Shown here: piece after piece, positions 8,415-37,272 of the stretch | Layout: the number at the start of each line of letters is the position of its first letter | Numbering within the stretch: position 1 is the stretch's first letter | Notes under the pieces: generated by a model | What the model saw: only the letters and a program-made list of their open reading frames with translations | Told to the model about the DNA's origin: nothing | The model's database searches: none | DNA from: Candidatus Falkowbacteria bacterium GW2011_GWF2_43_32 | GTDB taxonomy: Bacteria; Patescibacteriota; Patescibacteriia; Patescibacteriales; UBA12465 | Length of the DNA: 64,000 bases | Assembly (NCBI GenBank): GCA_000999715.1 | Contig: LCGL01000002.1 | Coordinates: forward strand, 26,136 to 90,135 | Direction: 5' to 3' | Made by a program: the position numbers and the translations under genes

Positions 8415-8439
8415 CTTGTTTTTACTTATATGTTATACT
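8411..8439 (+). promoter_or_regulatory. sigma70-type promoter of the cold-shock gene (TTGACT-17-TATACT), implying a ~150-nt 5' UTR
   Basis: TTGACT at 8411-8416, a 17-nt spacer, then TATACT at 8434-8439. Long leaders are typical of csp genes. Confidence 0.5.
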
Positions 8440-8598
8440 AATAACTGTGCAAAAATAGTGATTAGAAAAGTAGTCGATTTTCAATTAGTCATATCTGGGG
8501 TCTGTCATCGTGTACCGTTTTCGGGCCGAATTTCGGAAAGAGTATCCGATGACAGATCCCTGCAATTTGCCACTTTATTTACTCAAGTTTTAAAGACC

Positions 8599-8796
8599 AT
8601 GAATGGTACTATTAAAACTCTGACTGACAGAGGTTTTGGCTTCATCGCCGCCGAAGGTCAAGAAAAGGATTTATTCTTCCACAGCAATGCTTTGGTTGAT
8701 GTCCAATTCAATGAACTTCGCGAAGGTGACGCGGTTACTTTTGACACAGAGAACTCTCCGAAGGGAATGAACGCGGTTAACGTTAAACGCGCTTAA
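8599..8796 (+). CDS. cold-shock protein (CspA family)
   Basis: 65 aa: MNGTIKTLTDRGFGFIAAEGQEKDLFFHSN... with RNP1 (GFGFI) and an RNP2-like motif (LFFHS). The ORF-track start at 8416 is an upstream extension. Confidence 0.9.
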   Translation: MNGTIKTLTDRGFGFIAAEGQEKDLFFHSNALVDVQFNELREGDAVTFDTENSPKGMNAVNVKRA

Positions 8797-12333: not shown

Positions 12334-12472
12334 GCGGTTGTGTTTGTTTATCCGGATCGCTATTTGTTTTAATTTTATCATCCGCCGCCGAATTTCGGTT
12401 TCAGGCGGATTTTGTTTTTCGGATTTTTATGATATAATTTGGAGGGATTAATTTATAAATTTTTAAAAACTT

Positions 12473-13036: not shown

Positions 13037-13045
13037 TTATCTCCC

Positions 13046-22738: not shown

Positions 22739-25700
22739 ATGAAAAAATTACGCAAATTCTTAGTCAGCAGCGTAATGGTATTAACGGTTGTCGCCATGAG
22801 TGGCGTAGTCGTTCCTTCTGTCAATGCGGCCGCTTCGGCGGGCGACTTGATTAAGATGGAAGGCAACTCTTCCGTTTATTACCTGGGCGCTGATGCTAAG
22901 AGATACGTTTTCCCTAACGAAGCTACCTACATGTCCTGGTACTCCGATTTCAGCGGTGTGGTCACTATTCCCGCGGCTGAATTGCAGAGCTATGCCTTAG
23001 GAGGCAATGTTACCATGAGACCGGGTACCAAGTTAGTGAAAATCACTACGGATCCTTCCGTATATGCCGTTGAAACCAATGGCACATTAAGAAAGATTCA
23101 GAGCGAAGCCCAGGCGGCTGCCTTATACGGCACCAACTGGAACACGAAGATTGTTGACGTTCCGGATGCTTTCTTCACGAACTACAATGTCGGTTCGGTT
23201 TTACCGAGCGGTCAATATTCTATTGGCAGTTTAATAAAAAATGCCGGCGCGTCCGAAATTTTTTATTATGACGGCACCAGTTATCGGAAGATTACCAACG
23301 AAGCGGCTTTCAATGCCAATCGGTTCAACATGGCTAACGTCTTAACGGCGTCAACCACAGTTTCCGGTACCGGCACGGAAATTTCCGCAGTTGAAACCGG
23401 ATTAGTCAATGTTTCTCAGGGTGCTTCCACTCCGGATGCGGTTATTACCGGTTCCGGTTTGATGGTTTCCTTGAGCTCCATGACTCCGGCGGGCACCGGT
23501 ATTCCGGCGGCCTCTCCGATGGATTTCTTGAAAGTTAACTTAACGGCGGCCAACGATGGCGCGGTCAATGTTTCCGCGATCACCTTAACCGCTTATGATT
23601 TAGGTACTTCTACCTTTATTGATGAAGTTACTTTCTATGATAACGGCGTTAAAGTCGGAACTTCCAAGAACTTTACTTCCGATCGCGTCGCTTCCTTTAG
23701 TTTCGCGACTCCGATTGTCGTTAATGCGGGTACGACCAAAACTTTAACCGTCAAAGCGACGATTGAAGCCAGTCAGACCGGTAATTTCGCCATCGGTATT
23801 GCCAAGGCGGCCGATGTTACAGCCACCGCTTCTGCGGTTACCGGTTCTTTCCCGGTGGTCAGCAACACCATGTCCATCGTTTCCGGTGCGACTATCGGTA
23901 CGGTTGGCTTGACCAACGCGGTTACTACCGATACGACCAACAAATTCGGCGAAGACAATGTCTTATTGGCGGAATTTGATTTGACGGCCAATAACGAGCC
24001 GGTTCTTATCCAGTCCATCAAATTACGGAATGGCGGAACCGACACGACCGGCATCGTCGATAACTTGAAGTTATTCGTTGATGGCACGGAAGTGGCTTCC
24101 GGCACCTATGCCGACAAATATGTGACCTTCTCTCTTAACAATTATAAAATTGCCAAGAGCGATACGGTTCAGCTTGAAGTCAGAGGTGATTTGGGTGTAA
24201 CCAACAACAACGATACTTTTGTTTTGTATATCAAAGACGTTAACGATTTCGGTTTTATCGGTCAGGATTATGGTTTCGGCGTACAGCTTACTACGGCCGG
24301 TTTAGCCAATCTTGACACCACGACCGAAGGCATCACCGTGACTTTGACCACCGGTCAATTCACGATTGATATGGATAAGAGCGCCACTCCGGCCAAGGAT
24401 GTCAAAGCCGGCGATAATGACGTTGTCTTAGCGACTTTGGTGATGAAATCCAATGGCGAAGACGCTTTATTGGAGCAGATTGTGGATAGCGGTGGCAATG
24501 ATTTTGAAATCAACGGCACCGGCTTAGAGGCTGACGAAATTGAGAACGTGGAAATGCGCGATGTCGCCACCGGCGCCGTCTATGACATTACCGCGACTCG
24601 CGTTGGCAGTACGCAATGGACTTTGTCTATGACCGATGAGATTACTTTGCTCAAAGGCGTAGCCAAGACCTTCCAGATTCGTGCCGATATGAGCGACAGC
24701 GTAGCTGTTGGTGGAAATGGCGGTCCGATTGACGATGGCGATACTTTATATGTTGTGTTAGATGGCGCGGCGATGACTATCACCGGCGAAACCTCTAACG
24801 CTTCCATTACTGATATTACCCCGTCTTCCGTTACTTCCGCGACTGTGACTGTTAAGGACGCTTCCTTGACTTGGACTCCGACCGCTTTATCAACCCAGAC
24901 GGTTGTCGGCGGTGCCCAGGATGTCGTGGTTTATCAGGCTTCCTTGAAAGCCGGTACGGCCGATGGTATTAAATTGTCTTCAGTGACGATTTCTACCGAC
25001 GGTGCTGATACGGCCTTCACCGATGACGATATTACCAAGTTAGATTTATATTTGAACGGGAAACTGCTCAAATCCGTTTCTAACAGCATTGTGGAAACCA
25101 CTGGCGGAGCTGACGGTTATATTACTTTCAATTCCTTTAGCAGTGAAGCCGACGCGACTATCGCGGCCGGTGCCACGGTTAATTTAATGGTTAAGGCGTC
25201 TTTTGCCTCCACCGTTACTGCGGCCGGTACCTTTGATTTGGAATTAGAATCCGCTGACGATGCTACTTCTCGCGCGGTTTCCTCCAATGACTCGGTTACC
25301 GAGACTGGTACTATTTCCGGCGTTTCCGGTAATATTACCACTACCGCTAAAGGTACTTTGAAGGTTGAATTATTGGTAACTGATGTTAAAGCCGACGAAG
25401 ATACTCATATCTTAGCCGGTTCCGCGGTGGCGGCCGATCGTTACTTGGCTGAATTGAAATTCACCACGGAAAACGAACCGATCAAGGTTACCAGATTGAG
25501 ATTGGAAAATAGCGGTACTTCCGCTTCTGACGATGTGGCTTCGGTGAGATTAGTTACCGGTAGCGGCACTATCGTAGCGGAAGAAATTCCGGAAGCGGAT
25601 GGCGACGTCTTGTTTGATCCGTTTGACTATGTCTTAGCGGCCGATCAGACGACCAGCTTGTTTATCGCTCCGGTGGTCAGAGGATTGAATGTCTTAAACG

Positions 25701-26413
25701 ACCCGACTTCCACGGCTGACTACAACGAAACCATGATCTACAACATTGATGATATTGCGACCGGAGTTGTCGCCACAGGCGTAAACTCCAGCGCCAGCAT
25801 CACTTTAGTTGTCGATCCGGACGCCGATACAGTAGCGACCGGTCAATGGGCCGCGGCTTCCATTACTTCCAACACCGCGACTATTGTCGGTTCTGCTTTG
25901 ACTACCATTACCAACGCTATGAGTGACGCGACTTTGACCGGCGGTACCGCCAAAATCTTAGGCAAATACACGTTTGTCTTTGACAACGGCAGTAACAGAA
26001 ACGCTTCCAATGAAGAATTGAAAGCTTATCTGGATGCTCTCAAGGTAACTGTCAACAAGAGCACGGCGGTGGTTATTACCAATGTTAATGCTCAGATTGA
26101 TGGCACCGCTACCAAGGTAGCCGGCGACATCACCACTTTGGGCAATGGTAATACTTCCGGTTCGGTTGACTGGTTGACGACCGAATTGCAAGGTTTGGCG
26201 GATGGTGGTAAATTAGACGGTACAGTGACTTTGGTCATCACCGGCGATGTTACTACCACTGACGCGACCAGCGAATACGTTCAGACTTCATTGGCTGATG
26301 TCTATGGCGCTGGCGATGTCGATTACATCGGTAACGGTGCGACTGATGGCACGATTTTGACTGCCACCTATCTGCCGGTTGCCGAAGTTATCGGCGGTAC
26401 CTTGTCCGAGTAG
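22739..26413 (+). CDS. large secreted cell-surface protein (S-layer-like)
   Basis: 1224 aa with a Sec signal (MKKLRKFLVSSVMVLTVVAMSGVVVPSVNAAAS). The composition is Cys-free and rich in Thr/Val/Ala/Gly/Asp, with many beta-rich repeats (...VTLT.., ...LKVNLTA..). The N-terminus has tandem ~80-aa modules. Confidence 0.6.
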   Translation: MKKLRKFLVSSVMVLTVVAMSGVVVPSVNAAASAGDLIKMEGNSSVYYLGADAKRYVFPNEATYMSWYSDFSGVVTIPAAELQSYALGGNVTMRPGTKLVKITTDPSVYAVETNGTLRKIQSEAQAAALYGTNWNTKIVDVPDAFFTNYNVGSVLPSGQYSIGSLIKNAGASEIFYYDGTSYRKITNEAAFNANRFNMANVLTASTTVSGTGTEISAVETGLVNVSQGASTPDAVITGSGLMVSLSSMTPAGTGIPAASPMDFLKVNLTAANDGAVNVSAITLTAYDLGTSTFIDEVTFYDNGVKVGTSKNFTSDRVASFSFATPIVVNAGTTKTLTVKATIEASQTGNFAIGIAKAADVTATASAVTGSFPVVSNTMSIVSGATIGTVGLTNAVTTDTTNKFGEDNVLLAEFDLTANNEPVLIQSIKLRNGGTDTTGIVDNLKLFVDGTEVASGTYADKYVTFSLNNYKIAKSDTVQLEVRGDLGVTNNNDTFVLYIKDVNDFGFIGQDYGFGVQLTTAGLANLDTTTEGITVTLTTGQFTIDMDKSATPAKDVKAGDNDVVLATLVMKSNGEDALLEQIVDSGGNDFEINGTGLEADEIENVEMRDVATGAVYDITATRVGSTQWTLSMTDEITLLKGVAKTFQIRADMSDSVAVGGNGGPIDDGDTLYVVLDGAAMTITGETSNASITDITPSSVTSATVTVKDASLTWTPTALSTQTVVGGAQDVVVYQASLKAGTADGIKLSSVTISTDGADTAFTDDDITKLDLYLNGKLLKSVSNSIVETTGGADGYITFNSFSSEADATIAAGATVNLMVKASFASTVTAAGTFDLELESADDATSRAVSSNDSVTETGTISGVSGNITTTAKGTLKVELLVTDVKADEDTHILAGSAVAADRYLAELKFTTENEPIKVTRLRLENSGTSASDDVASVRLVTGSGTIVAEEIPEADGDVLFDPFDYVLAADQTTSLFIAPVVRGLNVLNDPTSTADYNETMIYNIDDIATGVVATGVNSSASITLVVDPDADTVATGQWAAASITSNTATIVGSALTTITNAMSDATLTGGTAKILGKYTFVFDNGSNRNASNEELKAYLDALKVTVNKSTAVVITNVNAQIDGTATKVAGDITTLGNGNTSGSVDWLTTELQGLADGGKLDGTVTLVITGDVTTTDATSEYVQTSLADVYGAGDVDYIGNGATDGTILTATYLPVAEVIGGTLSE

Positions 26414-26427
26414 TTCCAGAAATTCTT

Positions 26428-26460
26428 GAATAGTTTTCCCGATTTCCTTATTCAATAAAT
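26428..26460 (+). repeat. 33-bp direct repeat, copy 1 (GAATAGTTTTCCCGATTTCCTTATTCAATAAAT)
   Basis: 31/33 nt identical to 27308-27340. Together the two copies bracket the NYN gene cassette. Confidence 0.85.
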
Positions 26461-26469
26461 CGGAACAGC

Positions 26470-26636: not shown

Positions 26637-27188
26637 ATGAAAAATGTAATATATATGTTTATCGACGCATCCAATCTCTGGCAGGCTCAAAAAGCCAAGG
26701 GTAGATTTTTTAATTATAAAAAAATCGTTGAATACGTAAAGGGAAAGTTTCTGACCAAACAGGTCGAAGTCTTTTACTATTCCGCTTATCCCGCCAACGG
26801 AACGCGTCCTTATGATTTAGATGATCGGCATCAATTTTTTACTTTTTTAAAAAAGGGTTTAAAATTCAAGGTTAGAAAAAAGGAATTAAAAAGAATCAGG
26901 GTTGCCGATGAACATGGCAAATATCTCCGAGAAAAGGGAAATATGGATGTAGAAATAACTATTGATGCCATGTATTATTTTGAAAAGTATGATATAGCCG
27001 CTTTATTTACTGGCGATTCTGATTTTTTAGCTTTAGTCGCTCATTTGCGTATGGGTGGCAAGAAAGTGTACATATTTTCTTCAAAGAATAACATTTCCGA
27101 AGAATTGAGGACGGGTGCCGATGCTTATTTTGATATTTTGAAAATAAATGATGATATTTGGGGGCGAGAGTTAAGATATCGGGAATAA
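26637..27188 (+). CDS. NYN domain (LabA/DUF88-like) protein, putative RNase
   Basis: 183 aa with MFIDASNLW...GNMDVEITIDAM...FTGDSDFLALV, the Asp-containing motifs of NYN/LabA proteins. TATAAT at 26625-26630 lies 6 nt before the ATG, suggesting a leaderless mRNA. Confidence 0.75.
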   Translation: MKNVIYMFIDASNLWQAQKAKGRFFNYKKIVEYVKGKFLTKQVEVFYYSAYPANGTRPYDLDDRHQFFTFLKKGLKFKVRKKELKRIRVADEHGKYLREKGNMDVEITIDAMYYFEKYDIAALFTGDSDFLALVAHLRMGGKKVYIFSSKNNISEELRTGADAYFDILKINDDIWGRELRYRE

Positions 27189-27307
27189 AAAAATCACCCT
27201 CCGCCTGGAGGATGACCCTTGGATGTAAAACCCTTCCGGTTAATATAAACCGAAAGACACTATTATTATATATCGTTTTATTTTGATTGTCAATCCGAAT
27301 TTTGTCA

Positions 27308-27340
27308 GAACAGTTTTCCCGATTTCTTTATTCAATAAAT
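27308..27340 (+). repeat. 33-bp direct repeat, copy 2
   Basis: GAACAGTTTTCCCGATTTCTTTATTCAATAAAT; see copy 1. Confidence 0.85.
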
Positions 27341-27357
27341 GGGACAATTTTATTCAT

Positions 27358-27386
27358 TTGACTACATATCATATATGATATATAAT
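27358..27386 (+). promoter_or_regulatory. TA-operon promoter (TTGACT-17-TATAAT) with embedded perfect 16-bp palindrome ATATCATATATGATAT (27366-27381)
   Basis: Near-consensus hexamers with a 17-nt spacer. A palindrome filling the spacer is the classic arrangement of an antitoxin operator. Confidence 0.6.
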
Positions 27387-27398
27387 GAAAAATATAAA

Positions 27399-27746
27399 GT
27401 GAAGTTCTATCGGGATAGTCGAACGGGGAGGAGTCGGGTTTACGATTATATTGAAAGTTTAGACGAAAAATGTAATTCCAAGATTTATAAATATATAAAT
27501 TATTTGGTGGAAAATGGTGGCTATTTAGACGAGCCTTATAGTCGCCATATTCAAGGAAAAATTCGAGAATTAAGAGTCGATTTTTCTAATAATCATTACC
27601 GGATTTTTTATTTCACTTTTATCGGAAAGACCATTATTTTATTACATGCTTTTTTGAAGAAGACAGATAAAACTCCGATTAAAGAAATGAATATGGCTCT
27701 TAGTAATTATAATAAAATCATTAATAATCCTGAACTATATGAATAA
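27399..27746 (+). CDS. type II toxin, RelE/ParE superfamily (HigB / phage Gp49-like)
   Basis: (V)KFYRDSRTGRSRVYDYIESLDEK...IQGKIRELRVDFSNNHYRIFYFTFIGKTIILLHAFLKKTDKTPIKE matches the Gp49/HigB pattern. The GTG at 27399 was chosen because the ATGs at 27339 and 27375 lie upstream of or inside the promoter, so the start is uncertain. Confidence 0.65.
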   Translation: MKFYRDSRTGRSRVYDYIESLDEKCNSKIYKYINYLVENGGYLDEPYSRHIQGKIRELRVDFSNNHYRIFYFTFIGKTIILLHAFLKKTDKTPIKEMNMALSNYNKIINNPELYE

Positions 27747-28038
27747 TAAAAAGGATATAGGAAGAGCTATTGATTTCCATGAGGTTTTGGTTGAAAAATT
27801 AAAAAATCCAAGATTCAAGAAGCTTTACGATAAACATGGTCGTCAGCTGGAATTAGCTTATAGTCTTTTGCAATTGCGCAAAAAAAAGAAAATAAGCCAG
27901 GCTGCTTTAGCCGCTAAAATCGGTACGACGCAGAGCAATATCGCCCGCCTGGAAAGCGGTCGACAGAATTTTACTATTAGCTTTGTCAGTAAAGTGGCCG
28001 AGGCTCTGGGCTCGAGTTTGAAAATCAGTTTTCTTTGA
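27739..28038 (+). CDS. XRE-family HTH antitoxin (HigA-like)
   Basis: 99 aa overlapping the toxin gene by 8 nt. The HTH reads ISQAALAAKIGTTQSNIARLESGRQN. Confidence 0.75.
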   Translation: MNNKKDIGRAIDFHEVLVEKLKNPRFKKLYDKHGRQLELAYSLLQLRKKKKISQAALAAKIGTTQSNIARLESGRQNFTISFVSKVAEALGSSLKISFL

Positions 28039-28047
28039 TAAAGGGGT
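27997..28047 (+). repeat. 51-bp direct repeat, copy 1 (3' end of higA-like gene plus 9 nt)
   Basis: 48/51 nt identical to 35760-35810. Confidence 0.9.
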
Positions 28048-28107
28048 TATGTTATAATATTTTATAGCAGTTGTGATAGTATTTATAAACAAATTAACCG
28101 CACAATT

Positions 28108-31100
28108 ATGTTTAAAATCAACGCTCGTTACTTCAAAAAGCCAATGGTTTCGTTATTGGTTTTTTTATTTATTTTGAGCCCGCTTACTTCGGTTTTTGCC
28201 GAGAATGCTGTTATTTTAGTTGATCAGAATTTAGATATAACCGCTGTCGAAGTTTCCGTTTCGACCGTTAATGAAAAAAATGATGTTATAGCGATTGATG
28301 ATTCTGTAATTAACGAGGAGATAAAAGAATCGGTCGTGGAATTAACAATGGAAGCTGATGATTCGGCGCAGTCTGAATTTTTAACAAGTGAATCGCCTGT
28401 AGATACTAATGTTGTGATTAATCCCAGTACGGCTAAGCAATTATTGCCTAGCTCCGATCAAGTGAGCGGCGCGCTTATTTATGAATATTTAGTTTCTGTG
28501 CCGCCGGGTCGCAATGGACTGCAGCCGGATATTAAATTGACTTATAATAACCAAACCTCAGAAGAGGGCACGGAATTCGGCTTCGGTTGGGACATCAATA
28601 TTCCCTATATCCAAAGAGTGAATAAAAATGGTGTTGAAAAACTATATACTCAAAATTATTTCAATTCTTCTTTGGACGGTGAACTAGTATCCGCTGACAC
28701 AAATACCTGGATGGCTAAGACGGAAAATGGAGATTTTAGAACTTATATTTTTTCTAATAATCAATGGATAATGAAGGATAAAAACGGCACGCAGTATAAA
28801 TTCGGTTATACAGCGATTGCCAGACAAGATGATTCAAGCGATACTTCAAAAGTCTATAAATGGCTTTTAGAGGAAGTCCGGGATACGAACGATAATTATA
28901 TCAAATACGAATATTATAAAAATGCCGGCCAAATATACCCTTATCGGATTACTTATACTGGCAACGGCACGACAGATGGTATATTTCAAATTGAATTTTT
29001 AAAAGAAAGCCGTGATGACGCAATTACCAATAATCGTCCAGGATTCAGTGTAACGACATTTTATCGTATTTACGAGATTGACATAAAAGTCAACGGTAGC
29101 TTAACTCATAGATATGGTCTAGATTATAGCGATAATAATGGTTCTCGCTCTTTGCTGTTTTCAATTACTGAAACTGGCATTGATGATCTCGGGAATTCCG
29201 TTATTTTACCCGATACTACTTTTGAATATCAGGAAGAAACCCCGGGCTGGACTTTTGCCTGGACAACCCCTGTTTATCCGGTAAGTCCTTTTGTGATAGA
29301 TTACGCTAATGATAGAATAGTGGATGTAAATGGTGATGGTTTTCTTGATATGTTATCTACTAGAGACGACACGACCAGAACTTATATAAACAACGGTGAC
29401 AGTTGGGTTTTTAATAATGATTGGGAGGTCCCTAATTTTCGTCCCGATCAGGGGAGAATTAAATTGAGTAGCGGTAATAGTTTTGTAGTTGATATTAATG
29501 GTGATGCTTTAGCTGACATTATTTATGGAGGAGAGTCGATATATATTAATCAGGGATTGGGTTGGGTTTATGACGATTCTTGGGAAATACCGGCACTAAT
29601 GAATGTTATGGATTATAATTTGGATAAGTTAGCCGATGTTAATGGCGACGGATTAATTGATATTGTTTCTACTCGACATGGATATACTAACGATTACACT
29701 ACCTTTTATATTAATAATGGTTCAGGTTGGGATTATGATCAACAACTGGAAACTCCTTTTGTAGAGGGCGTAGGGCATTTTTCGGTAGGAGGGGTTAATG
29801 CTCAACTAGTTGATATTAATGGTGATAGCTTAGTGGATATAGTTTATAATTCTGACATTTTTATCAATCAGGGTCATAGTTGGATTTATGATGATTCTTG
29901 GGAAATACCGGCGCTAATGAATGGCGTATATTATAATCTTGATAGATTTATTGATGTTAATGGTGACGGATTGATTGATATTGTTTCTACTCGACATGGA
30001 TATACTAACGATTATACTAGCTTTTATATTAATAACGGTTCAGGCTGGGATTATGATGATTCTTGGCAAACACCCAGTCAAATAGCTCTAAGCAATAGCT
30101 ATTTTAATGGGTTAGTTGATGTTAATGGCGATGGAATAACTGATTTAATTTATAGTTCTTCCGTTTATGTTAATAACGGAGATAAGGTTGATTTATTAAC
30201 CACTATTAACAACAACAAAGGCGGCTTTACCGACATAATCTATAAAACTACGCCTCAATATCGCTCCGGCTCCACACAGTTGAATCCGAAACTGCCGTTT
30301 GTTTTAGATACTGTTTATCAATTAGTAACTAATGACGGTGCAAACAATATTGTTACTAAAACCTATAGTTACGAAGGTGGCCAATATTATTTTAATACGT
30401 ATATTGATCGTAAGTTTGCCGGATTCAATAAAGTGATAACGACTGATGCGGTCGGCAATACTACTAAATTATTTTTTCATCAAGGAGATGCCTCAGATTC
30501 CTCTCAGGGCGAATATAACGATGATGCTTTTAAGATCGGCAAGATTTATCGCACGGAAGTGGCCGATAGCACCGGTAATATTTACAGTAAAAGTATCAAT
30601 AAATGGGATGACTATGATTTAGGAAATGGTAATAAATTCGTTAAGTTGGCGCAGACCTTGGAGATGACTTATGACGGAAATTCCACCCACAAGGATAAAG
30701 CGGAAACCTATAGTTATGATAACGCCAATGGTAATTTAACTCAAAAAATAGAACTAGGCGAAGTTATTGGCAATAATGACGGTGTTTATACCGATATCGG
30801 CACGGATGATTTTATGACCACGATTTCCTATGTTTCTAATACCGGTGCCAATATTTTAGGCCTGCCTTCGCAACAAACAGTCGTCGATCATAATTTTAAT
30901 AAAGTTAAAGAAACAAAATATTATTATGACGCCCAAGCTTTGGGTGGTGTCATAAAAGGCAATCTGACCAAACAAGAAGACTGGAAATCGGGAACCGCCT
31001 ATGTTAATGCCCGGAAGACCTATGATGGCGTTTATGGCCTGGTAACGATGGCTACTGATCCGAGGGGCAAGACTACGCGCTATATTTATGATTCATATCA

Positions 31101-34014
31101 TCTATATCCGGCGACGATTACAAATGCGTTAAATCAATCAACGCAATACACTTATGACTATTCGTCGGGCAAGGTTAAGCGAATAACCGACCCCAATAGT
31201 CGTATTTTTGAAAATGTTTATGATGGTCTAGATCGTTTGATTATTGAAAAACAGCCTGATATTACCGATCCCGCAACGCTTGTTGCCAAGACTGAATATA
31301 TTTATACCGATACCCCTAATGCCGTAAATATTCATAGAACCGATAATTTGGATTCTTTGATTTCTCGCGAGACGTACCAATATTTTGATGGTTTGAGTCG
31401 TTTGATACAAGAAAGAAGAGAGGCGGAGGGGAGTAATTATCAAATAAAAGATATTATTTATAATAACCGCGATTTAGTAAGTAAAGAATCCTTGGATTAT
31501 TTTTCCGTCGGTTCCGGTAAAACGACTCCGACAACGGCAACGGCGCTTTATAATAATTACACTTATGATCCCTTGTCTAGAATTGTTTCAACCGCGAATG
31601 CGGTCGGTACGACAATCAACGTTTATGACGATTGGAAATTAAGCATTACAGACGTTAATGGTAAAATTAAAGATTTATATCGAGATGCTTATAATAATCT
31701 CGTTCGGGTCGGCGAGCATCATAGCGCCAGTATTTACACTACCATTTATCAGTATAATTATTTAGGAAATCTTGTAAAAATTACCGATGCTTCTAACAAT
31801 ATTCGTAACTTTACCTATGATGGTTTGGGGCGAAGATTGACGGCTCAAGATTTGCATAGTGTTCCGGATGTTACTTTCGGGACATGGGGTTATAGTTATG
31901 ACGATGCCGGCAATTTAATATCATCCACGAATCCCAATGGTCAGACCGTTGCTTACACCTACGATAATCTCAATCGGCGTTTTATGGAGGATTATATCAC
32001 TCAAGTCGGAACGGAAATATATTACATTTATGATTCCGGCGTTGACGGTATCGGTCAATTAACCGGCGTCATCACCGGCGGATTAACGCAAACTAATATA
32101 TATAACCCGTTAGGTTTATTAAAGCATGAAATAAAAACCATCAATTCTACGAGTTATCAAACGGATTATGAATATGATCGTCAGGGAAATCAGACTATCA
32201 TTACCGATCCAAGCGGGTTTAAGGTTAAATATAATTATAATTCTGCCGGTTTATTAAATTCTATACAGAAAAAAGAGGTTAATGATAGCATTTATCTTAA
32301 TGTCATTCATAATTTTAATTATTCTCCGTTAGAACAACCGACGACTATTTATTATGCAAATGGCGCCGTGACCGCGAACACTTATGATGCGACCAAACTT
32401 TATCGGATGAGCAACAAGGTAACGACTGTCGGCGGCGGCTCTTATGCTCAGCGGTTAGCTTATACCTTTGACAATATCGGCAACATTACTCGTATTGTAG
32501 ACAGTTCGGCAAGCAGTACGGCTAAGACCGCTAATTATGTTTATGATGATTTACATCGCCTGACTCAGGCGGCAATAACCAATGTCGCTGTCGGACAGGC
32601 TCCTTATACCGAAAATTATTCCTATAATCCTATTGGTAATATTATATTCAAAACTGGTCAAAATCTTTATGTCTATGCCGGCAATCAGGGAACCAGTTAT
32701 GCCAATCCGCACGCGGTGACCAACATAGATAATATTAACTATACTTACGATCGCAACGGTAATTTAATATTCGATTCGTTTTGGGCATACTCTTGGGATT
32801 ATCGTAATCGTTTAATCCAAGCCACTAAGGGCACAACCACTATCAGATACGGCTATGATCAGAATGATAACCGAATTTGGGTTAATAACGGTTTAACCAT
32901 AACTACTTATCCCACCAAATACTATAATATTACCTCTACCGGGACGACCACAAAGCATATTTTCGCCGGTAGCGAGTTAATGGCCACTATTGAAGGAACG
33001 GGAGCGACTGCCACAAAACATTATATTCACTCCGATCATTTGGGCGGTTCCGGCGTTGTTACCAATTCCGCCAATGCCGTAGAAGAGTTGATTGATTATT
33101 ATCCTTTCGGTGATATTCGTTTTGACCGAAAAATCGGCTCTTTTAACGAACAACGGAAATTTACGGGGCATGAATATGACGTCGAGACAGGACTTAATTA
33201 TATGATGGCGAGATATCAGAATGGAACTATTGGAAGATTTTTGAGTCAGGATCCGGGTACACGAGATAATCCGACGTCGTTTTTGAAGGACCCACAACAA
33301 TTGAATTATTATAGTTATGCGAGAAATAATCCGCTAATCGCTAAAGATCCGAACGGAAAATGGATTCAGTATGTTGTTGGACAAAATAATGCAGTTTCCT
33401 TAGGAAACTGGGCAAACAATCAATATCAAAATAGTTCCGCAGCAAGATTTACTATGGATCATCCATATGTCCCAGCAATAGCTGGCGCAGCTCCTTTGGC
33501 CATATATGGAGTTGGTAGTTTATCTGCAGAAGCGTTAACTCCACTTGTCGGATCAACTTTGGCCAGCAAAGCTTCTCTTGGAGGGACTGCCGGTGCTGCC
33601 GGAGGAATTATATCCCAATTCTTTAATGATATCTCTAAGCAGCAAGTTTCTAGCCCGAACGAGTACGCCGCGAGTGCAGCTAAAGGCGCGATAATTGGAG
33701 CTGGTAGTGAATTTGGCCCTTTCGCGGCCGGGGCCGCTGGGACATTGTCATATATTGCGGAAACCGTTGCTAAGGGCGAATCATTGAACGCTGGAGAGGC
33801 AATATATGAAGGCGGGTTAAGCGCACTGGCAACAACAGCTGTTAAGAATGGAGCTAAAGTCATGGGTATTAATTCAGTCCCAGGCCGATATCCCCAACCT
33901 TTCTCCACTTCGTTTATTACAGGTAGCCATGCGATACAAAATTACGGGAAAGAGGCAGCTTCAAGTGTCTTCCAGGGAGCAATCAATGCTGTAAAAAATA
34001 TGGTTACAAAATAA
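28108..34014 (+). CDS. RHS/YD-repeat polymorphic toxin with Sec signal, SpvB-like N-domain, FG-GAP/VCBS repeats, RHS shell and Gly/Ala-zipper C-terminal toxin tip
   Basis: 1968 aa. A signal peptide (PMVSLLVFLFILSPLTSVFAENA) is followed by an SpvB-type segment (VSVPPGRNGLQPDIKLTYNNQ...FGFGWDINIPYIQR). D(V/I)NGDG repeats and many YD repeats (YxYDxxGNL/RL) follow. The core ends with YYSYARNNPLIAKDPNGKW (D at 33346). The last ~217 aa are Gly/Ala-rich and hydrophobic. An extended -10 TGTTATAAT lies at 28050-28058. Confidence 0.9.
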   Translation: MFKINARYFKKPMVSLLVFLFILSPLTSVFAENAVILVDQNLDITAVEVSVSTVNEKNDVIAIDDSVINEEIKESVVELTMEADDSAQSEFLTSESPVDTNVVINPSTAKQLLPSSDQVSGALIYEYLVSVPPGRNGLQPDIKLTYNNQTSEEGTEFGFGWDINIPYIQRVNKNGVEKLYTQNYFNSSLDGELVSADTNTWMAKTENGDFRTYIFSNNQWIMKDKNGTQYKFGYTAIARQDDSSDTSKVYKWLLEEVRDTNDNYIKYEYYKNAGQIYPYRITYTGNGTTDGIFQIEFLKESRDDAITNNRPGFSVTTFYRIYEIDIKVNGSLTHRYGLDYSDNNGSRSLLFSITETGIDDLGNSVILPDTTFEYQEETPGWTFAWTTPVYPVSPFVIDYANDRIVDVNGDGFLDMLSTRDDTTRTYINNGDSWVFNNDWEVPNFRPDQGRIKLSSGNSFVVDINGDALADIIYGGESIYINQGLGWVYDDSWEIPALMNVMDYNLDKLADVNGDGLIDIVSTRHGYTNDYTTFYINNGSGWDYDQQLETPFVEGVGHFSVGGVNAQLVDINGDSLVDIVYNSDIFINQGHSWIYDDSWEIPALMNGVYYNLDRFIDVNGDGLIDIVSTRHGYTNDYTSFYINNGSGWDYDDSWQTPSQIALSNSYFNGLVDVNGDGITDLIYSSSVYVNNGDKVDLLTTINNNKGGFTDIIYKTTPQYRSGSTQLNPKLPFVLDTVYQLVTNDGANNIVTKTYSYEGGQYYFNTYIDRKFAGFNKVITTDAVGNTTKLFFHQGDASDSSQGEYNDDAFKIGKIYRTEVADSTGNIYSKSINKWDDYDLGNGNKFVKLAQTLEMTYDGNSTHKDKAETYSYDNANGNLTQKIELGEVIGNNDGVYTDIGTDDFMTTISYVSNTGANILGLPSQQTVVDHNFNKVKETKYYYDAQALGGVIKGNLTKQEDWKSGTAYVNARKTYDGVYGLVTMATDPRGKTTRYIYDSYHLYPATITNALNQSTQYTYDYSSGKVKRITDPNSRIFENVYDGLDRLIIEKQPDITDPATLVAKTEYIYTDTPNAVNIHRTDNLDSLISRETYQYFDGLSRLIQERREAEGSNYQIKDIIYNNRDLVSKESLDYFSVGSGKTTPTTATALYNNYTYDPLSRIVSTANAVGTTINVYDDWKLSITDVNGKIKDLYRDAYNNLVRVGEHHSASIYTTIYQYNYLGNLVKITDASNNIRNFTYDGLGRRLTAQDLHSVPDVTFGTWGYSYDDAGNLISSTNPNGQTVAYTYDNLNRRFMEDYITQVGTEIYYIYDSGVDGIGQLTGVITGGLTQTNIYNPLGLLKHEIKTINSTSYQTDYEYDRQGNQTIITDPSGFKVKYNYNSAGLLNSIQKKEVNDSIYLNVIHNFNYSPLEQPTTIYYANGAVTANTYDATKLYRMSNKVTTVGGGSYAQRLAYTFDNIGNITRIVDSSASSTAKTANYVYDDLHRLTQAAITNVAVGQAPYTENYSYNPIGNIIFKTGQNLYVYAGNQGTSYANPHAVTNIDNINYTYDRNGNLIFDSFWAYSWDYRNRLIQATKGTTTIRYGYDQNDNRIWVNNGLTITTYPTKYYNITSTGTTTKHIFAGSELMATIEGTGATATKHYIHSDHLGGSGVVTNSANAVEELIDYYPFGDIRFDRKIGSFNEQRKFTGHEYDVETGLNYMMARYQNGTIGRFLSQDPGTRDNPTSFLKDPQQLNYYSYARNNPLIAKDPNGKWIQYVVGQNNAVSLGNWANNQYQNSSAARFTMDHPYVPAIAGAAPLAIYGVGSLSAEALTPLVGSTLASKASLGGTAGAAGGIISQFFNDISKQQVSSPNEYAASAAKGAIIGAGSEFGPFAAGAAGTLSYIAETVAKGESLNAGEAIYEGGLSALATTAVKNGAKVMGINSVPGRYPQPFSTSFITGSHAIQNYGKEAASSVFQGAINAVKNMVTK
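29545..30180 (+). repeat. 318-bp in-frame tandem duplication inside the RHS gene (FG-GAP/VCBS region)
   Basis: INQGLGWVYDDSWEIPALMN..DVNGDGLIDIVSTRHGYTNDYTTFYINNGSGWDYD (from 29545) is repeated from 29863 with few changes at both the nt and aa level. Confidence 0.8.
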
Positions 34015-34019
34015 AATCT

Positions 34020-34469
34020 ATGACAACCTATCATGTAAATAGAAAAATGTTATTTGCTATTTGGTTCGTGGTTAGTCTTGGAATAATAGGTTTATCTTTA
34101 TTTTCGTATTTTGGTAATTTAAGCGGAGACATCTCTTCTCTTTTTAAAGCAATATTGCTAGGATCAGGTGGCTGGCTAATATTTTCATTATTGATATATA
34201 TTTTTGTGAATATAAAAATTGATAATGACATTTTAGTTTATAAAACCGTATGGACAAAAAAGATAAAGATTAAAGAGATAACTCATATTTGTAGGACATC
34301 ACGTCCGAAACCCTTTGATAAAATGTACGAATCTTTAACTGTGTTTGTTCAAAAAAATGACCAAATAAAAGAATATGAAATTAATTTGAACTATTTCGAT
34401 AAAAAAGATATTGAGGACCTATTAAAAAGGTTGAAAAAATTGAATCATAATATTCATTTTGAAATATAA
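34020..34469 (+). CDS. putative cognate immunity protein (two TM helices plus soluble C-terminal domain)
   Basis: 149 aa starting 5 nt after the RHS stop. It has two hydrophobic helices (LFAIWFVVSLGIIGLSLF, GWLIFSLLIYIFV). The role is assigned by position. Confidence 0.5.
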   Translation: MTTYHVNRKMLFAIWFVVSLGIIGLSLFSYFGNLSGDISSLFKAILLGSGGWLIFSLLIYIFVNIKIDNDILVYKTVWTKKIKIKEITHICRTSRPKPFDKMYESLTVFVQKNDQIKEYEINLNYFDKKDIEDLLKRLKKLNHNIHFEI

Positions 34470-34541
34470 TCATAGCAATAATCCAAGTTGGAAAATAATA
34501 AAAGATAATGTGCAGAAATTTAAAATAGGAGTCTATAAAAC

Positions 34542-34811
34542 ATGGAGAAGTTTTTAGTGTTGGCTGAATTTGGTTGGACTGGGTATTTATATGCTGTTGT
34601 TATAAGACATAATAATTTATTTGATTATACTGTCTTTGGAAATTTGTTAGTATTATTATTTCCATTCATAGGACCATTTATTCGATATTTTCTTTATTAC
34701 GAAGTAGGGGAGGGTAATCTTATTTTTAACTACTTTTTTATAAAAATAGTACTCCCATTAAAAAGCTTGTATTCTTGTCTTATGAACAGCGTCCAGAGAA
34801 ATTCTATTTGA
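34542..34811 (+). CDS. small membrane protein (possible orphan immunity gene)
   Basis: 89 aa and hydrophobic, with AGGAG 10 nt upstream. It lies in the AT-rich immunity array. Confidence 0.4.
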   Translation: MEKFLVLAEFGWTGYLYAVVIRHNNLFDYTVFGNLLVLLFPFIGPFIRYFLYYEVGEGNLIFNYFFIKIVLPLKSLYSCLMNSVQRNSI

Positions 34812-34951
34812 CAATAAATTTAAGATTTTTATAGAGAAGCAAAAAAATCTCCATAAAAAAGCGCCTAGTACTATTTTGGGTTGGGTTTGGTTTACTATTC
34901 GTTGGTGCGGTGTAACTGCGATGTTGAATATTGGTGTGCTTGAATTAATTA

Positions 34952-34960
34952 GGGGGGGGG
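34952..34960 (+). repeat. G9 homopolymer tract
   Basis: Nine consecutive G in an otherwise very AT-rich intergenic stretch, 6 nt upstream of a short ATG-initiated ORF (34967). Confidence 0.9.
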
Positions 34961-35002
34961 ATAGCATGATTGATACACAAATAAAAATAAAACTCTGGGA
35001 CG

Positions 35003-35494
35003 ATGACGATATGTGGTATAATGGAAATGATAAAAAATAATATGAAGAAAATTAAATATAACGAAGGTGATTGGTTTGAAATTAAATTAAAAAGTGGTAA
35101 ATATTTTTTGGGCCGCATTGCTAGAACAAGCAAAAAACCAGGAGAAATTTTAGGATATTTTTTTGGTCCCAGTAAAATCAGCTATACAAATAAGAATTTA
35201 AAGGGGTTTAATGCTTCAAATACCCGTGCAATATATATACATGGGCATTTGAATATAATAAATGGAAAATGGAAATTAATTAAAAATAATGATAACTGGA
35301 AAAGGAATGAGTGGCCAATATCGGTCTTTGTTCGTCATGAAGATTTCACTGAAAGATATTGGAGAGTAGAATATACTGATGATATTTATAGTCCATCATC
35401 TGAAACTAGGATATCTAAAAAAGAAGCTGAAGGATTACAAGATAATTCACTTTATGGAGTAGACGCAGTGGAGGTAGTGCTTGAAAAAATTTAA
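35003..35494 (+). CDS. cytoplasmic protein, possible orphan immunity protein
   Basis: 163-aa ORF with ambiguous start (ATGs at 35003, 35021 and 35042). The sequence KYNEGDWFEIKLKSGKYFLGRIA..ILGYFF is reminiscent of small immunity families in polymorphic-toxin loci. The call is by context only. Confidence 0.4.
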   Translation: MTICGIMEMIKNNMKKIKYNEGDWFEIKLKSGKYFLGRIARTSKKPGEILGYFFGPSKISYTNKNLKGFNASNTRAIYIHGHLNIINGKWKLIKNNDNWKRNEWPISVFVRHEDFTERYWRVEYTDDIYSPSSETRISKKEAEGLQDNSLYGVDAVEVVLEKI

Positions 35495-35531
35495 TTAGCA
35501 TCTTTGATAGATTAAATCTCTTGAATAATCT

Positions 35532-35651
35532 ATGGTGAAAAACAAAATAATTGCTAATAAAAAATTATCAACCTTTTTGGAAGAGTACGATTTTATTAAA
35601 AAAGGAAGCACTTGGTGCTTGAGGAAAAATAGTATGACCCCCGAAATTTAG
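35532..35651 (+). pseudogene. truncated immunity-type gene fragment (39 codons)
   Basis: MVKNKIIANKKLSTFLEEYDFIKKGSTWCLRKNSMTPEI* looks like the N-terminus of small ..L...GFKKKG.tW.r.. proteins (DUF4304-like pattern) cut short by a stop. Confidence 0.35.
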
Positions 35652-35723
35652 ACTCAATATTCGGCATAAAACAAACTAGGCGCAGAAAATTCTAAGTGCG
35701 AAATGTTTGGCGGCAAAATAATT

Positions 35724-35810
35724 CGCCAAATTAATTAAGCTTTGGAATAGAATTGAAGGGCCGAAGCTTTAGGCTCGAGTTTGAAAATCAGTTTTCTTTG
35801 ATAAAGGGGT
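35724..35810 (+). pseudogene. relic of a second HigA-like antitoxin gene (dispersed element copy 2 fused to 51-bp repeat copy 2)
   Basis: 35724-35758 matches 10374-10408 (31/35 nt). 35760-35810 matches 27997-28047 (48/51 nt) and still encodes AEALGSSLKISFL*. Stops and frameshifts lie upstream. Confidence 0.6.
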
Positions 35811-35851
35811 ACTAAAGTGCCTATTTTGTTGATATTTCGCGGTTTTTATTC

Positions 35852-35895
35852 CCTGTAGAGCGTATATTGACACAAACACGCTCTACAGGTAAACT
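35852..35895 (+). promoter_or_regulatory. promoter TTGACA-17-TAAACT enclosed by a perfect 12-bp inverted repeat (CCTGTAGAGCGT / ACGCTCTACAGG); leaderless start
   Basis: Inverted-repeat arms at 35852-35863 and 35878-35889. TTGACA at 35867-35872, TAAACT at 35890-35895, ATG at 35902 (6 nt after the -10). Confidence 0.55.
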
Positions 35896-35901
35896 ATCAA
35901 T

Positions 35902-36873
35902 ATGAAAGCGACATTATCCAATTCAGATTATTTACGCAATTTTGACCGCTTTATTGGTAGTCTGGATTTTTCTGATTCCGATACTCTTCATATTTATTCT
36001 CATCCAAAATGGATCAATGTACATCCGGCTGTTTTAGCTATAGTTGTAGCCATGGCAATGCGGGCAGGTAAGCAGAACGTTACATTTGAAAATCTCACGG
36101 CAACTTCCGGTTCCTATCTTGATCGTATGGGACTTTTTGAATTTACGCATCAAAAGTCACCATATACTATTCATAAGAAAGAAGAATCGGGAAGATTTAT
36201 ACCCGTTACCATTATCAAAAATTCTACCGAACAGTCAAAATTTATTACAGATATGATTCCTCTTCTGCATTTACCTGCCGATAAAACGGATGCTATTAAA
36301 TATACCATCGGGGAACTGCTTCGTAATGTATTGGAACACGCAGGAAGTGCGGCCGGAGCTATTGTTGCGGCTCAATACTATAAAAAATCAAACACAATTC
36401 GTATTGGTATTTGCGATGGCGGCATTGGTATCAGAAAGAGCCTGCAACGCTATTGGGCTACCCGATCAAAGACGGATATAGAAGCAATCAAATGGGCAAT
36501 GGTTCCCGGTATTTCGGGAACGACGCGAAAAGAAGGAGGAACGGAAGACAATGCCGGCGCCGGATTATTTTTTATCAAATCCATTGCGCAAGTAGCCCGT
36601 AATTATTTTATGATTTACAGCGGCTCCGGTATATATAAACTGCTACTTCATGATAAGAGAATAGAAAAACCGCGGCTCCATTCGGATCCGGATGACGATC
36701 GTCATTCTGAACGTAATGACGTCCCTTATTTTCAAGGTACGCTGGTGGCGATAGATCTATCTCTTGAAAATAAATCTGAATTTACTCATCTGCTCTCCGC
36801 TATACGAGAGGTTTACGGCAAAGCGGTTAGAGATCGCAAACGAAAGAAGTACAAAGAACCAAAATTTATATGA
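35902..36873 (+). CDS. GHKL-superfamily ATPase (RsbW/SpoIIAB-like HATPase_c core) with uncharacterised ~130-aa N-terminal domain
   Basis: 323 aa with an N-box (GELLRNVLEH), G1 (CDGGIGI), G2 (DNAGAGLFFIKS) and a G3-like motif (FQGTLVAIDL). No DHp/His-phosphotransfer domain, no TM segment and no receiver domain. Confidence 0.65.
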   Translation: MKATLSNSDYLRNFDRFIGSLDFSDSDTLHIYSHPKWINVHPAVLAIVVAMAMRAGKQNVTFENLTATSGSYLDRMGLFEFTHQKSPYTIHKKEESGRFIPVTIIKNSTEQSKFITDMIPLLHLPADKTDAIKYTIGELLRNVLEHAGSAAGAIVAAQYYKKSNTIRIGICDGGIGIRKSLQRYWATRSKTDIEAIKWAMVPGISGTTRKEGGTEDNAGAGLFFIKSIAQVARNYFMIYSGSGIYKLLLHDKRIEKPRLHSDPDDDRHSERNDVPYFQGTLVAIDLSLENKSEFTHLLSAIREVYGKAVRDRKRKKYKEPKFI

Positions 36874-37184
36874 GTATGATAATTAAAATCAAGAATCTTG
36901 TCGGTGATTTTGCGGAAAATAAAGATGTGGCAAAAAGCTTACGTATCAACAAGATTATGCCGATCTTGGCAGAGAGTAAGGAGCTTGTATTGGATTTTTC
37001 CGGAGTTAGCGGTACGACTCAATCGTTTATTCACGCCTTAATCTCCGAACCGATTCGGCGGTTTCGTGATGTGGCTTTAGAAAAGATACACTACAAAAAT
37101 TGCTCTGATGTTGTAAAAGAAGTTATCAAAACCGTGTCTGAATATATGCAGGAAAGTCTTGATTCGGAAAATTATGAAGAATAA
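36870..37184 (+). CDS. STAS-like protein (DUF4325-type)
   Basis: 104 aa with an ATGA start/stop overlap with the ATPase gene. LVLDFSGVSGTTQSFIHALI matches the LDF.GV....sF..el core I associate with DUF4325/STAS-like domains. Confidence 0.55.
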   Translation: MSMIIKIKNLVGDFAENKDVAKSLRINKIMPILAESKELVLDFSGVSGTTQSFIHALISEPIRRFRDVALEKIHYKNCSDVVKEVIKTVSEYMQESLDSENYEE

Positions 37185-37272
37185 TAATAGCTGTGTAAAA
37201 TATTTAATGTTATAATGATAAAAAATAACGTTTAATGTTGTTGCTATTTTTTAAAGGTAGCCTATAAGATTT

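Follow-up and report, generated by a model that had tools for sequence, protein, structure and literature searches.

A probably Sec-exported RHS polymorphic toxin with a candidate membrane-active tip and a probable membrane immunity protein in a Candidatus Falkowbacteria genome

The stretch of DNA analysed here (the window, 64,000 nucleotides) comes from Candidatus Falkowbacteria bacterium GW2011_GWF2_43_32, a groundwater genome of the candidate phyla radiation (CPR, or Patescibacteria), and carries a long open reading frame (ORF) for an RHS protein. We consider it moderately probable that this protein is a Sec-exported polymorphic toxin which works in the mode of WapA, is accompanied by its own immunity gene, and has a C-terminal tip that permeabilises the membrane. 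The membrane is the probable site of action of the tip, and the strongest argument for this is the conserved pairing of related tips with small membrane proteins encoded by the next gene; here that gene is ORF149, very probably the cognate immunity gene to judge by the loci compared. Fighting and host manipulation among the CPR bacteria are largely obscure, and the usual contact-dependent injection machines are lacking. The window also contains the housekeeping genes for GreA, BipA, DnaE and MnmA; exact look-ups find its proteins on record as KKT13377.1 and others, with the contig record DNKM01000008.1. A preliminary description, made by reading the letters, had supposed a producer of an episymbiotic type, and the organism is indeed a CPR bacterium.

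The N-terminus of the RHS protein reads MFKINARYFKKPMVSLLVFLFILSPLTSVFA followed by ENA and has the layout of a Sec signal peptide, called with a heuristic on the n, h and c regions. A basic n-region (four K/R before the hydrophobic stretch) precedes a hydrophobic core, whose best 12-mer has a Kyte-Doolittle (KD) value of 2.83, and a small-x-small cleavage-type site, VFA/E (the slash marks the predicted cut). Matching layouts are found in 102 of the 120 best shell homologues, among which the pattern ...LLVFLFILxPLxPVFA/EE recurs. Neither the RHS protein nor the scanned window ORFs contain a PAAR, VgrG or other type VI secretion system (T6SS) family, and no T6SS, type VII secretion system (T7SS) or TcA-like gene occurs among the scanned ORFs of the window. 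Because the signal peptide is conserved in the family and these genes are absent from the scanned ORFs, Sec is the most likely export route, in line with the Sec dependence first proposed.

The remainder of the protein up to the tip is a chassis of the cocoon type. Pfam assigns SpvB from residue 121 (2.9e-13), three stretches of FG-GAP_3 (4.2e-14), TcdB_toxin_midN (PF12256) at residues 669-786 (5.2e-19) and four stretches of RHS_repeat (7e-28); NCBIfam adds YD_repeat_2x (5e-17) and Rhs_assc_core at residues 1664-1750 (TIGR03696, 2.1e-16). In the PDB search, residues 306-783 align to residues 307-800 of the TcB subunit YenB, and the shell matches the Rhs cages 8h8a and 7q97 as well as Tse5 (8cp6). 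On the strength of these alignments the protein is a single-chain TcB-TcC-type cocoon that carries a signal peptide. Pfam gives only SpvB, FG-GAP and TcdB_midN ahead of the shell, and no cell-wall-binding domain was found there; some shell homologues bear SLH or LysM. There are more than 1000 shell homologues, the best non-identical one being 52% identical, and those with names are mostly Patescibacteria. A 201-nt internal duplication (29539-29739 and 29857-30057, 85% identical, period 318 nt) lies in the FG-GAP region and indicates a recent duplication of beta-propeller blades.

The core of the RHS protein ends in NPLIAKDPNGK, which follows the PxxxxDPxG pattern of Rhs core ends, with DPNGKW beginning at nucleotide 33346. 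Across 115 homologues, conservation reaches at least 95% at the key residues of the core motifs DYYPFG, GRFxSQDP (GRFLSQDP in the window), NxYxYxxNNP and DPxG, and the aspartates of GRFLSQDP and DPNG are kept; for this reason the autoprotease apparatus familiar from Tc and Rhs structures looks intact; by analogy with those structures, the core would cleave the chain. The signal peptide, SpvB domain, FG-GAP/VCBS repeats, YD/RHS shell and core end listed in the preliminary description were all recovered where it had placed them, and the core match and motif conservation bear out its designation of the protein as an RHS polymorphic toxin.

Beyond the core the family diverges abruptly. Over the 110 residues that precede DPxG the homologues have a median identity of 52% to the window protein; over the 110 that follow, the median is 21%. 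Ten distinct Pfam toxin or hydrolase families were seen on sister tips: these include peptidoglycan hydrolases (VanY/Peptidase_M15_4, CHAP and NlpC/P60), a lipase-like PGAP1/alpha-beta-hydrolase fold at the same junction, nucleases and other toxins (barnase-type RNase, HNH, Tox-REase-7, Ntox44 and Ntox21), and a Tox-GHH domain with PT-TG in front of it. Because identity falls at the junction and the tips found there are so varied, the comparison of tip sequences is a direct demonstration of tip swapping; the alternative tips that were to be sought in relatives at DPNGKW thus exist. For several of the sister tips the target is the envelope, attacked from outside, in keeping with extracellular delivery.

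The base composition of the tip had been put forward as a further sign of replacement. The tip is in fact richer in GC than the RHS body (0.46 overall with a peak of 0.51, against 0.35-0.42), but the excess is confined to codon positions 1 and 2 (0.53 and 0.52), while GC at the third codon position (GC3) is 0.33, inside the body range of 0.27-0.40. The rise comes from the Gly (GGN) and Ala (GCN) codons and is no sign of a foreign origin. The GC difference therefore stands as an observation, and its use as evidence for tip replacement was rejected.

The glycine and alanine content noted in the preliminary description is well marked: Gly+Ala make up 30% of the tip, against 9-18% in every body window of the same size. 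Charged residues amount to 9.7%, against 12.9-25.8% in any 217-residue body window, and only two of them lie within tip residues 34-89. Neither the tip nor a profile built from it has a match in Pfam or NCBIfam, and a search of the PDB at E <= 10 gave two chance hits only. Word-indexed homology searches with the tip returned essentially nothing, since Gly/Ala-rich words swamp the index, and a back-translated genome scan with the tip alignment had no yield, no stretch being conserved enough. An exhaustive HMMER search (phmmer) found 28 relatives, and comparison with the tips of the shell homologues added more. An antisense ORF of 149 residues (33459-33908, minus strand; Ala/Pro/Gly-rich) within the tip-coding region is most likely no gene and owes its existence to the abundance of GCN/GGN on the sense strand.

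These alignments divide the tip into two parts (Table 1). The first reads GNWANNxYxNSSAARFxMDHPYVPA, followed by a hydrophobic Gly/Ala stretch, and recurs after Rhs cores ahead of several unknown domains as well as Ntox28, Tox-REase-7 and HNH; a strict motif picks it out in 16 of 116 sister tips. In one sister tip (P0092) PT-TG occupies the place that this module has in the window tip, and no Pfam model, PT-TG, PT-HINT and PT-VENN included, matches the module in any of 11 tips at E <= 1. Since it precedes nucleases that need to reach the cytoplasm, we read it as a putative membrane-entry or pre-toxin element. The module also occurs in two short non-RHS proteins, P0129 and P0146, which have signal peptides of their own and TM-rich (transmembrane-rich) C-terminal parts, and is therefore not confined to RHS cargo.

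The second part is a helical, charge-poor domain. It is common to P0008 (49% identity), P0005, P0049 and P0025 in the comparison of shell-homologue tips, and to P0122, P0124, P0126, P0132, P0133 and P0136 in the exhaustive phmmer search; P0126 and P0133 lack the first part, and the domain is therefore autonomous. G78, G81, G82, Q86, D90, S97, Y102, G175, P178 and G188 are invariant, R176 and H190 nearly so, and there is a C-terminal motif PGRxP...FxTGxHA. A conserved stripe GxxxGxxxGxxxQxxxD is formed by G74/G78/G82/Q86/D90; the zipper G74xxxG78xxxG82 is conserved in position in 8 of 11 members, with Q86 and D90 on the same helical face. AlphaFold2 models, built from 7 and then 11 sequences, gave an all-helical fold both times, in which the confidence score (pLDDT) reaches 62-72 only in a four-helix core. 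With no model in Pfam or NCBIfam, the tip family and the pre-toxin module are, by these sequence searches, undescribed families.

ORF149 begins 5 nt past the stop of the RHS gene, from which no terminator separates it, and contains two TM segments, as the preliminary description had it. The distribution of charges suggests that its N-terminus and its C-terminal domain are both cytoplasmic. Over 131 residues it is 40% identical (E = 1e-29) to the product of the gene beside the closest tip, at locus L008, and at each of the ten loci that have a related tip (10 of 10) the gene directly after it codes for a small integral membrane protein. These proteins belong to two families. Type 1, with two TM segments and a C-terminal domain of about 85 residues, comprises ORF149 and the proteins of L008, L004, L005, L007 and L011; type 2, with three TM segments in 87-93 residues, is found at L003, L012, L006, L010 and L011. 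The immunity families track the tip subgroups: type 2 accompanies every member of a coherent tip clade (L010/L012/L003/P0132, 47-85% identity), and type 1 is what the window shares with its closest relative. It is known that immunity to channel-forming effectors almost always resides in polytopic membrane proteins, and that a single glycine-zipper toxin may be countered by two immunity families (PMC12744356). The pairing at ten loci makes the earlier proposal, a membrane immunity protein beside a membrane-targeting toxin, a probable one.

Some features of the related loci are recorded here in their own right. At L011 (the P0049 locus) a 144-residue protein of the 2-TM type and a 92-residue protein of the 3-TM type are encoded in tandem after one tip (7931-8705), and genes for two tyrosine recombinases follow some 3 kb beyond them (region 11481-13752). 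L003 (1-4995) is an orphan array, in which a truncated RHS C-terminus and two small 3-TM genes are followed by RHS C-terminal fragments, one with a related tip (P0136) and a 3-TM immunity gene, the next with a different Gly-rich tip. A pleckstrin-homology (PH) domain assignment for ORF149 was dropped: a single sub-threshold bPH_4 match (E = 0.014), which was not reproduced in family members, is a hint only. PADLOC gave no match for ORF149 or for the Imm26-family protein encoded further downstream.

The following course of events is proposed. The 1968-residue precursor, whose signal is present in the sequence, would leave the cell through Sec and lose its signal peptide, as in the Sec-dependent RHS delivery described for WapA in monoderm bacteria (PMC12704120). 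SpvB, the beta-propeller and the YD-shell would then fold into a closed cage around the 217-residue tip; an Rhs cage is known to shield the producer from Tse5 (PMC12744356). The aspartyl protease of the Rhs core, with its motifs intact, may free the tip within the cage near the bond between DPNGK and W, and contact with a target cell, either a competing CPR bacterium or a host, would release it. The pre-toxin module and the hydrophobic stretch could then engage the target cytoplasmic membrane, an arrangement that resembles contact-dependent inhibition (CDI) ionophores, in which an entry domain is followed by an ionophore domain (PMC11630599). Finally, the helical domain, with its GxxxGxxxGxxxQxxxD face, would insert and oligomerise, and the resulting ion-conducting lesion would collapse the membrane potential; we infer this depolarising mechanism for the tip. 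Given the conserved gene pairing, ORF149 (two TM segments, N-terminus inside, cytoplasmic C-terminal domain) is expected to be co-transcribed and to shield the producer and its kin by blocking insertion or assembly.

Several points weigh against this account. The AlphaFold2 models of the tip are of low confidence overall (pLDDT 45 with 7 sequences, 51 with 11), and Foldseek finds no significant match for the model in the PDB (best E = 0.4). The tip contains two glycine-zipper motifs, defined as (G/A/S)xxxGxxxG or GxxxGxxx(G/S/T), against a shuffle mean of 1.8, and its maximum 19-residue hydropathy of 1.41 is below the classical TM level (KD19 threshold 1.6). ORF149 is only weakly similar (17-22% identity) to the more distant type-1 proteins. 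Neither a cell-wall anchor nor a receptor-binding domain can be recognised in the RHS protein, a TcB-TcC-type cage would have to open without TcA, and the steps above are a proposal drawn from sequence. An extended glycine zipper was rejected, as the motif count equals the shuffle expectation; the Tse5-like Gly/Ala zipper of the preliminary description is reduced to an analogy, with no PDB or Pfam match behind it, and the profile searches, which assign no Pfam or NCBIfam family, place the tip neither with Tse5 nor in an enzymatic toxin family. Weak Foldseek matches, mostly to Gly-rich membrane proteins (NDUFA11, Tim22, AmtB and transporters), were not counted as evidence.

The polar residues Q86, D90, S97, Y102, R176 and H190 would suit an enzyme too, which is a further point against a pore-former. 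Such an enzyme would attack targets exposed on the outside of the membrane, of which lipid II, undecaprenyl carriers and phospholipid head groups are examples; its active site would consist of the Q, D, S, Y, R and H residues, and a membrane-anchored immunity protein would neutralise it at the surface, as with TelC/TipC or colicin M/Cmi. The invariance of the first four residues, the near-invariance of the last two, the PGRxP...FxTGxHA motif, the chance-level zipper count, the hydropathy below the TM threshold and the presence of several envelope-directed enzymes among the sister tips of the same shell family all speak for it. However, no enzyme family was matched in Pfam, NCBIfam or the PDB, profiles included; 30% Gly+Ala and 10% charged residues are atypical of a soluble enzyme; and P0122, which is otherwise intact in this domain and still has a type-1 immunity gene, lacks both R176 and H190. 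An enzymatic tip is on this balance unlikely, though it is the main rival reading.

The other explanations are weaker. The protein could be a device of an episymbiont rather than mainly an antibacterial weapon, with a tip that makes a conduit or leak for nutrients in the membrane of a host bacterium and a downstream protein that guards only the producer. A reduced, host-dependent lifestyle, taken from general knowledge of Patescibacteria (PMC13622651), and a very large shell family whose named members are mostly CPR would agree with this, but the hypervariable tip, the nuclease and peptidoglycan-hydrolase alternatives, the orphan immunity gene and the orphan RHS C-terminal arrays in relatives are hallmarks of polymorphic competition, and lethal nuclease tips on the same chassis speak for killing rather than feeding; we regard a feeding device as improbable. 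The alignment to YenB, the TcdB_toxin_midN domain and a tip of 217 residues, inside the 201-400 residues typical of TcC hypervariable regions (PMC7861908), would also be expected of the BC component of a classical Tc (ABC) toxin aimed at eukaryotes, with the TcA pentamer encoded elsewhere. Against this there is no TcA-like gene among the scanned ORFs of the 64-kb window, a Sec signal peptide is foreign to Tc subunits, which are released by lysis (PMC10847048), and the adjacent immunity gene and bacterial-envelope tips indicate bacterial targets, which makes a classical Tc toxin very improbable. Least credible is a teneurin-like surface adhesin with a structural C-terminal region and unrelated small membrane proteins downstream. 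A TEN_YD-shell Pfam match is on record for the RHS protein, and many homologues bear adhesion-type domains (LamG, Ig-like, PKD, SLH, LysM); the autoprotease motifs are nevertheless conserved, at 10 loci the tip family and the membrane protein downstream vary together, and genuine toxin domains occupy the same position in homologues.

Among known systems, the RHS toxin proposed here would work most like a WapA whose chassis is a homologue of TcB-TcC and whose cargo acts on membranes in the manner of Tse5 or EsxX (PMC12704120, PMC12744356, PMC11630599, PMC7861908). With the WapA-type proteins of B. subtilis and S. suis it shares the Sec signal peptide, the YD/RHS shell and Rhs core, the polymorphic C-terminal toxin with immunity genes and orphan modules behind it, and a producer of monoderm type (PMC12704120). 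WapA, in contrast, has wall-binding domains (LysM and others) and the help of sortase where the window protein has a TcB-like half and no recognised anchor, and the window tip belongs to another family. The shell is likewise homologous to the TcB-TcC cocoon (YenB/YenC, TcdB2-TccC3), with SpvB, beta-propeller, TcdB_mid, RHS shell and aspartyl-protease core all in common and a cargo within the size range of the hypervariable regions (201-400 aa; PMC7861908). The window protein differs in being one fused polypeptide with a signal peptide and an adjacent immunity gene; the scanned ORFs of the window include no TcA (TcA lies within 10 kb in PMC7861908), and the tips of the family are directed at bacteria.

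For the cargo, the closest comparison is with Tse5 (PA2684) of the P. aeruginosa T6SS and its immunity protein Tsi5, which have a homologous shell (8cp6), an Rhs cage around a membrane-depolarising tip (a property that the window tip would share) and a membrane-bound immunity protein (PMC12744356, PMC11630599). The two tips have no sequence similarity, the window tip has an extra pre-toxin module, and Tse5 is delivered by the T6SS through PAAR/VgrG, whereas the scanned window ORFs include no T6SS genes. The T7SS glycine-zipper toxins EsxX, TelE and TspA (with ExiCD and TsaI) also have a helical C-terminal toxin rich in small residues and membrane immunity, with two distinct immunity families for one toxin type, and act on the cytoplasmic membrane from outside, as is proposed for the window tip (PMC12744356). 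They are delivered by LXG/T7SS instead of Sec and RHS, no homology was detected, and their zipper is extended, while the window tip has a single conserved zipper followed by Q and D. The ionophoric CdiA-CT toxins of CDI resemble it in their two-part helical tip, putative zipper helix and membrane CdiI immunity (PMC11630599; sequences compared via Pfam and the PDB), but depend on CdiA/CdiB two-partner secretion in diderms and have entry domains that use inner-membrane proteins such as AcrB.

The locus is thus most likely a known type of weapon, a WapA-like Sec-exported RHS toxin, with a new warhead. No description of the CPR RHS family, of the pre-toxin module or of the tip domain was found in the literature, the coverage of which was incomplete. 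Together with the more than 1000 shell homologues, mostly CPR among those named, the locus suggests that a Sec-exported RHS cocoon fills the role of the missing injection machines in these bacteria. We further entertain, with considerable doubt, a broader idea: Sec-exported single-chain TcB-TcC cocoons may be a general polymorphic-toxin chassis of the CPR that does without TcA, T6SS and T7SS, and the GNWANN...DHPY module with its Gly/Ala hairpin may be an autonomous membrane-entry device, carrying nucleases across the membrane or a pore-former into it, with entry blocked by two immunity families. The pre-toxin module, the helical toxin domain of about 150 residues and the two membrane immunity families are new to Pfam and NCBIfam. 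Should the module turn out to be self-sufficient in membrane translocation, protein delivery would profit from it; a tip that is one more pore-former would make the finding an ordinary member of a well-known class.

Table 1. Features of the RHS locus, in positions of the window.
Feature	Position	Strand	Remarks
RHS protein	28108..34014	+	1968 aa; open reading frame
Sec-type signal peptide	28108..28200	+	aa 1-31; predicted cleavage between VFA and EN; read from sequence
TcB-like half: SpvB, FG-GAP beta-propeller, TcdB_toxin_midN	28468..30465	+	aa 121-786; Pfam, YenB alignment
YD/RHS repeat shell	30466..33096	+	aa ~787-1663; Pfam, NCBIfam, Rhs cage structures
Rhs-associated core ending in DPNGK, putative autoprotease	33097..33360	+	aa 1664-1751; TIGR03696
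Tip	33361-34011	+	217 aa; residues 1752-1968, after DPNGK
Tip part 1, putative pre-toxin module	33361..33552	+	tip aa 1-64; common to tips with unrelated toxins
Tip part 2, helical charge-poor putative toxin domain	33553..34011	+	tip aa 65-217; alignments, AlphaFold2
ORF149, probable cognate immunity protein	34020..34469	+	149 aa; 2 TM segments and predicted cytoplasmic C-terminal domain
Aromatic-rich ORF, gene status uncertain	34542..34811	+	89 aa; one hydrophobic segment
Orphan Imm26-family immunity gene	35003..35494	+	163 aa; PF15428
ORF of uncertain status	35532..35651	+	39 codons
Left copy of 52-nt direct repeat	27996..28047	+	3' end of intact higA-like gene
Right copy of 52-nt direct repeat	35759..35810	+	14-codon higA relic, in-frame TGA just upstream

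The DNA trailing the RHS gene has a GC content of 24-30%, so the AT-richness remarked on earlier is real, and the reading of the genes in it as an immunity-type array was upheld in part. The soluble 163-residue protein belongs to such an array, with a match to Imm26 (E = 9.1e-12; 45.6 bits against a cut-off of 23.3; profile positions 2-105 of 107). No remnant of an orphan toxin or of an RHS core was found in 34015-35900 by tblastn; because no cognate toxin remnant lies nearby, the gene is, by its family match, an orphan immunity gene against a different toxin. Of the supposed second small membrane protein, the 89-residue ORF is present, but it has only one segment above the TM threshold and no homologue in related loci, and it is uncalled in the NCBI record. 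The 39-codon ORF exists as well; it matches no family and no related locus, and its description as a truncated immunity fragment is unsupported.

Beyond this tail, the whole block of 26.6-37.2 kb is an island of low GC3, a mosaic in which conflict and defence modules are combined. Within 26637-37184 (NYN, HigB, HigA, RHS, ORF149, the 89-residue ORF, Imm26, HATPase and DUF4325) GC3 is 0.22-0.39, against 0.41-0.60 in nearly every other ORF of the window; the small ORF 8416..8796 has 0.37. A 52-nt direct repeat, at the end of the intact higA-like gene and in a higA relic, brackets a 7.76-kb RHS/immunity block. The two copies agree to 94%, including an exact core of 39 nt (chance expectation 0), and their three differences are all synonymous and all in the first 14 nt. 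Such a repeat agrees with a circular element having entered at the 3' end of higA by a Campbell-type insertion. There is no integrase inside the 7.76-kb block, and no exact copy of the 39-nt core in genome and metagenome collections. Since the repeat brackets the RHS block and an apparently mobile cassette of HATPase and DUF4325 genes adjoins it, the locus is a mosaic of mobile conflict modules.

This two-gene cassette (35811-37187, 1.38 kb) encodes an HATPase_c_2-like protein of 323 residues and a DUF4325/STAS-like protein of 104 residues, both of which resemble the N-terminal region of a PADLOC DrmA model. At 93-95% protein and about 90% DNA identity the cassette recurs in genomes with the labels Saccharibacteria, Magasanikbacteria, Jacksonbacteria, Sungiibacteriota and WOR-1; at 65-77% identity it is present in numerous oral TM7 genomes and also in bins that carry the label Gammaproteobacteria or Nanoarchaeota. 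The DNA common to these relatives begins exactly at the end of the right 52-nt repeat copy. Elsewhere the cassette is usually located upstream of an HsdR-like ORF, inside apparent type I restriction-modification operons. It appears to be a recently mobile, defence-associated module. Its own consensus promoter (35852-35895) consists of TTGACA, a spacer of 17 nt and TAAACT, overlapped by a perfect 12-bp palindrome (CCTGTAGAGCGT / ACGCTCTACAGG); promoter and palindrome are kept in every related locus inspected, and the palindrome looks like an operator for autoregulation.

At the left end of the island, a 37-nt direct repeat (26428-26464 and 27308-27344, 92% identical) flanks the NYN-domain gene (26637..27188), and its second copy overlaps the higB start codon. 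Judged by this repeat, the NYN gene is the second insertion of cassette type here, and the duplicated target forms its borders; an NYN homologue also occurs near the HATPase cassette at L078. The island is flanked by genes for two large proteins of secreted or surface type: one of 1224 residues (22739-26413), Thr/Ala/Val-rich and with a signal peptide, which has no Pfam match, and one of 1328 residues (40635-44621) with Peptidase_C92, LTD and Laminin_G_3.

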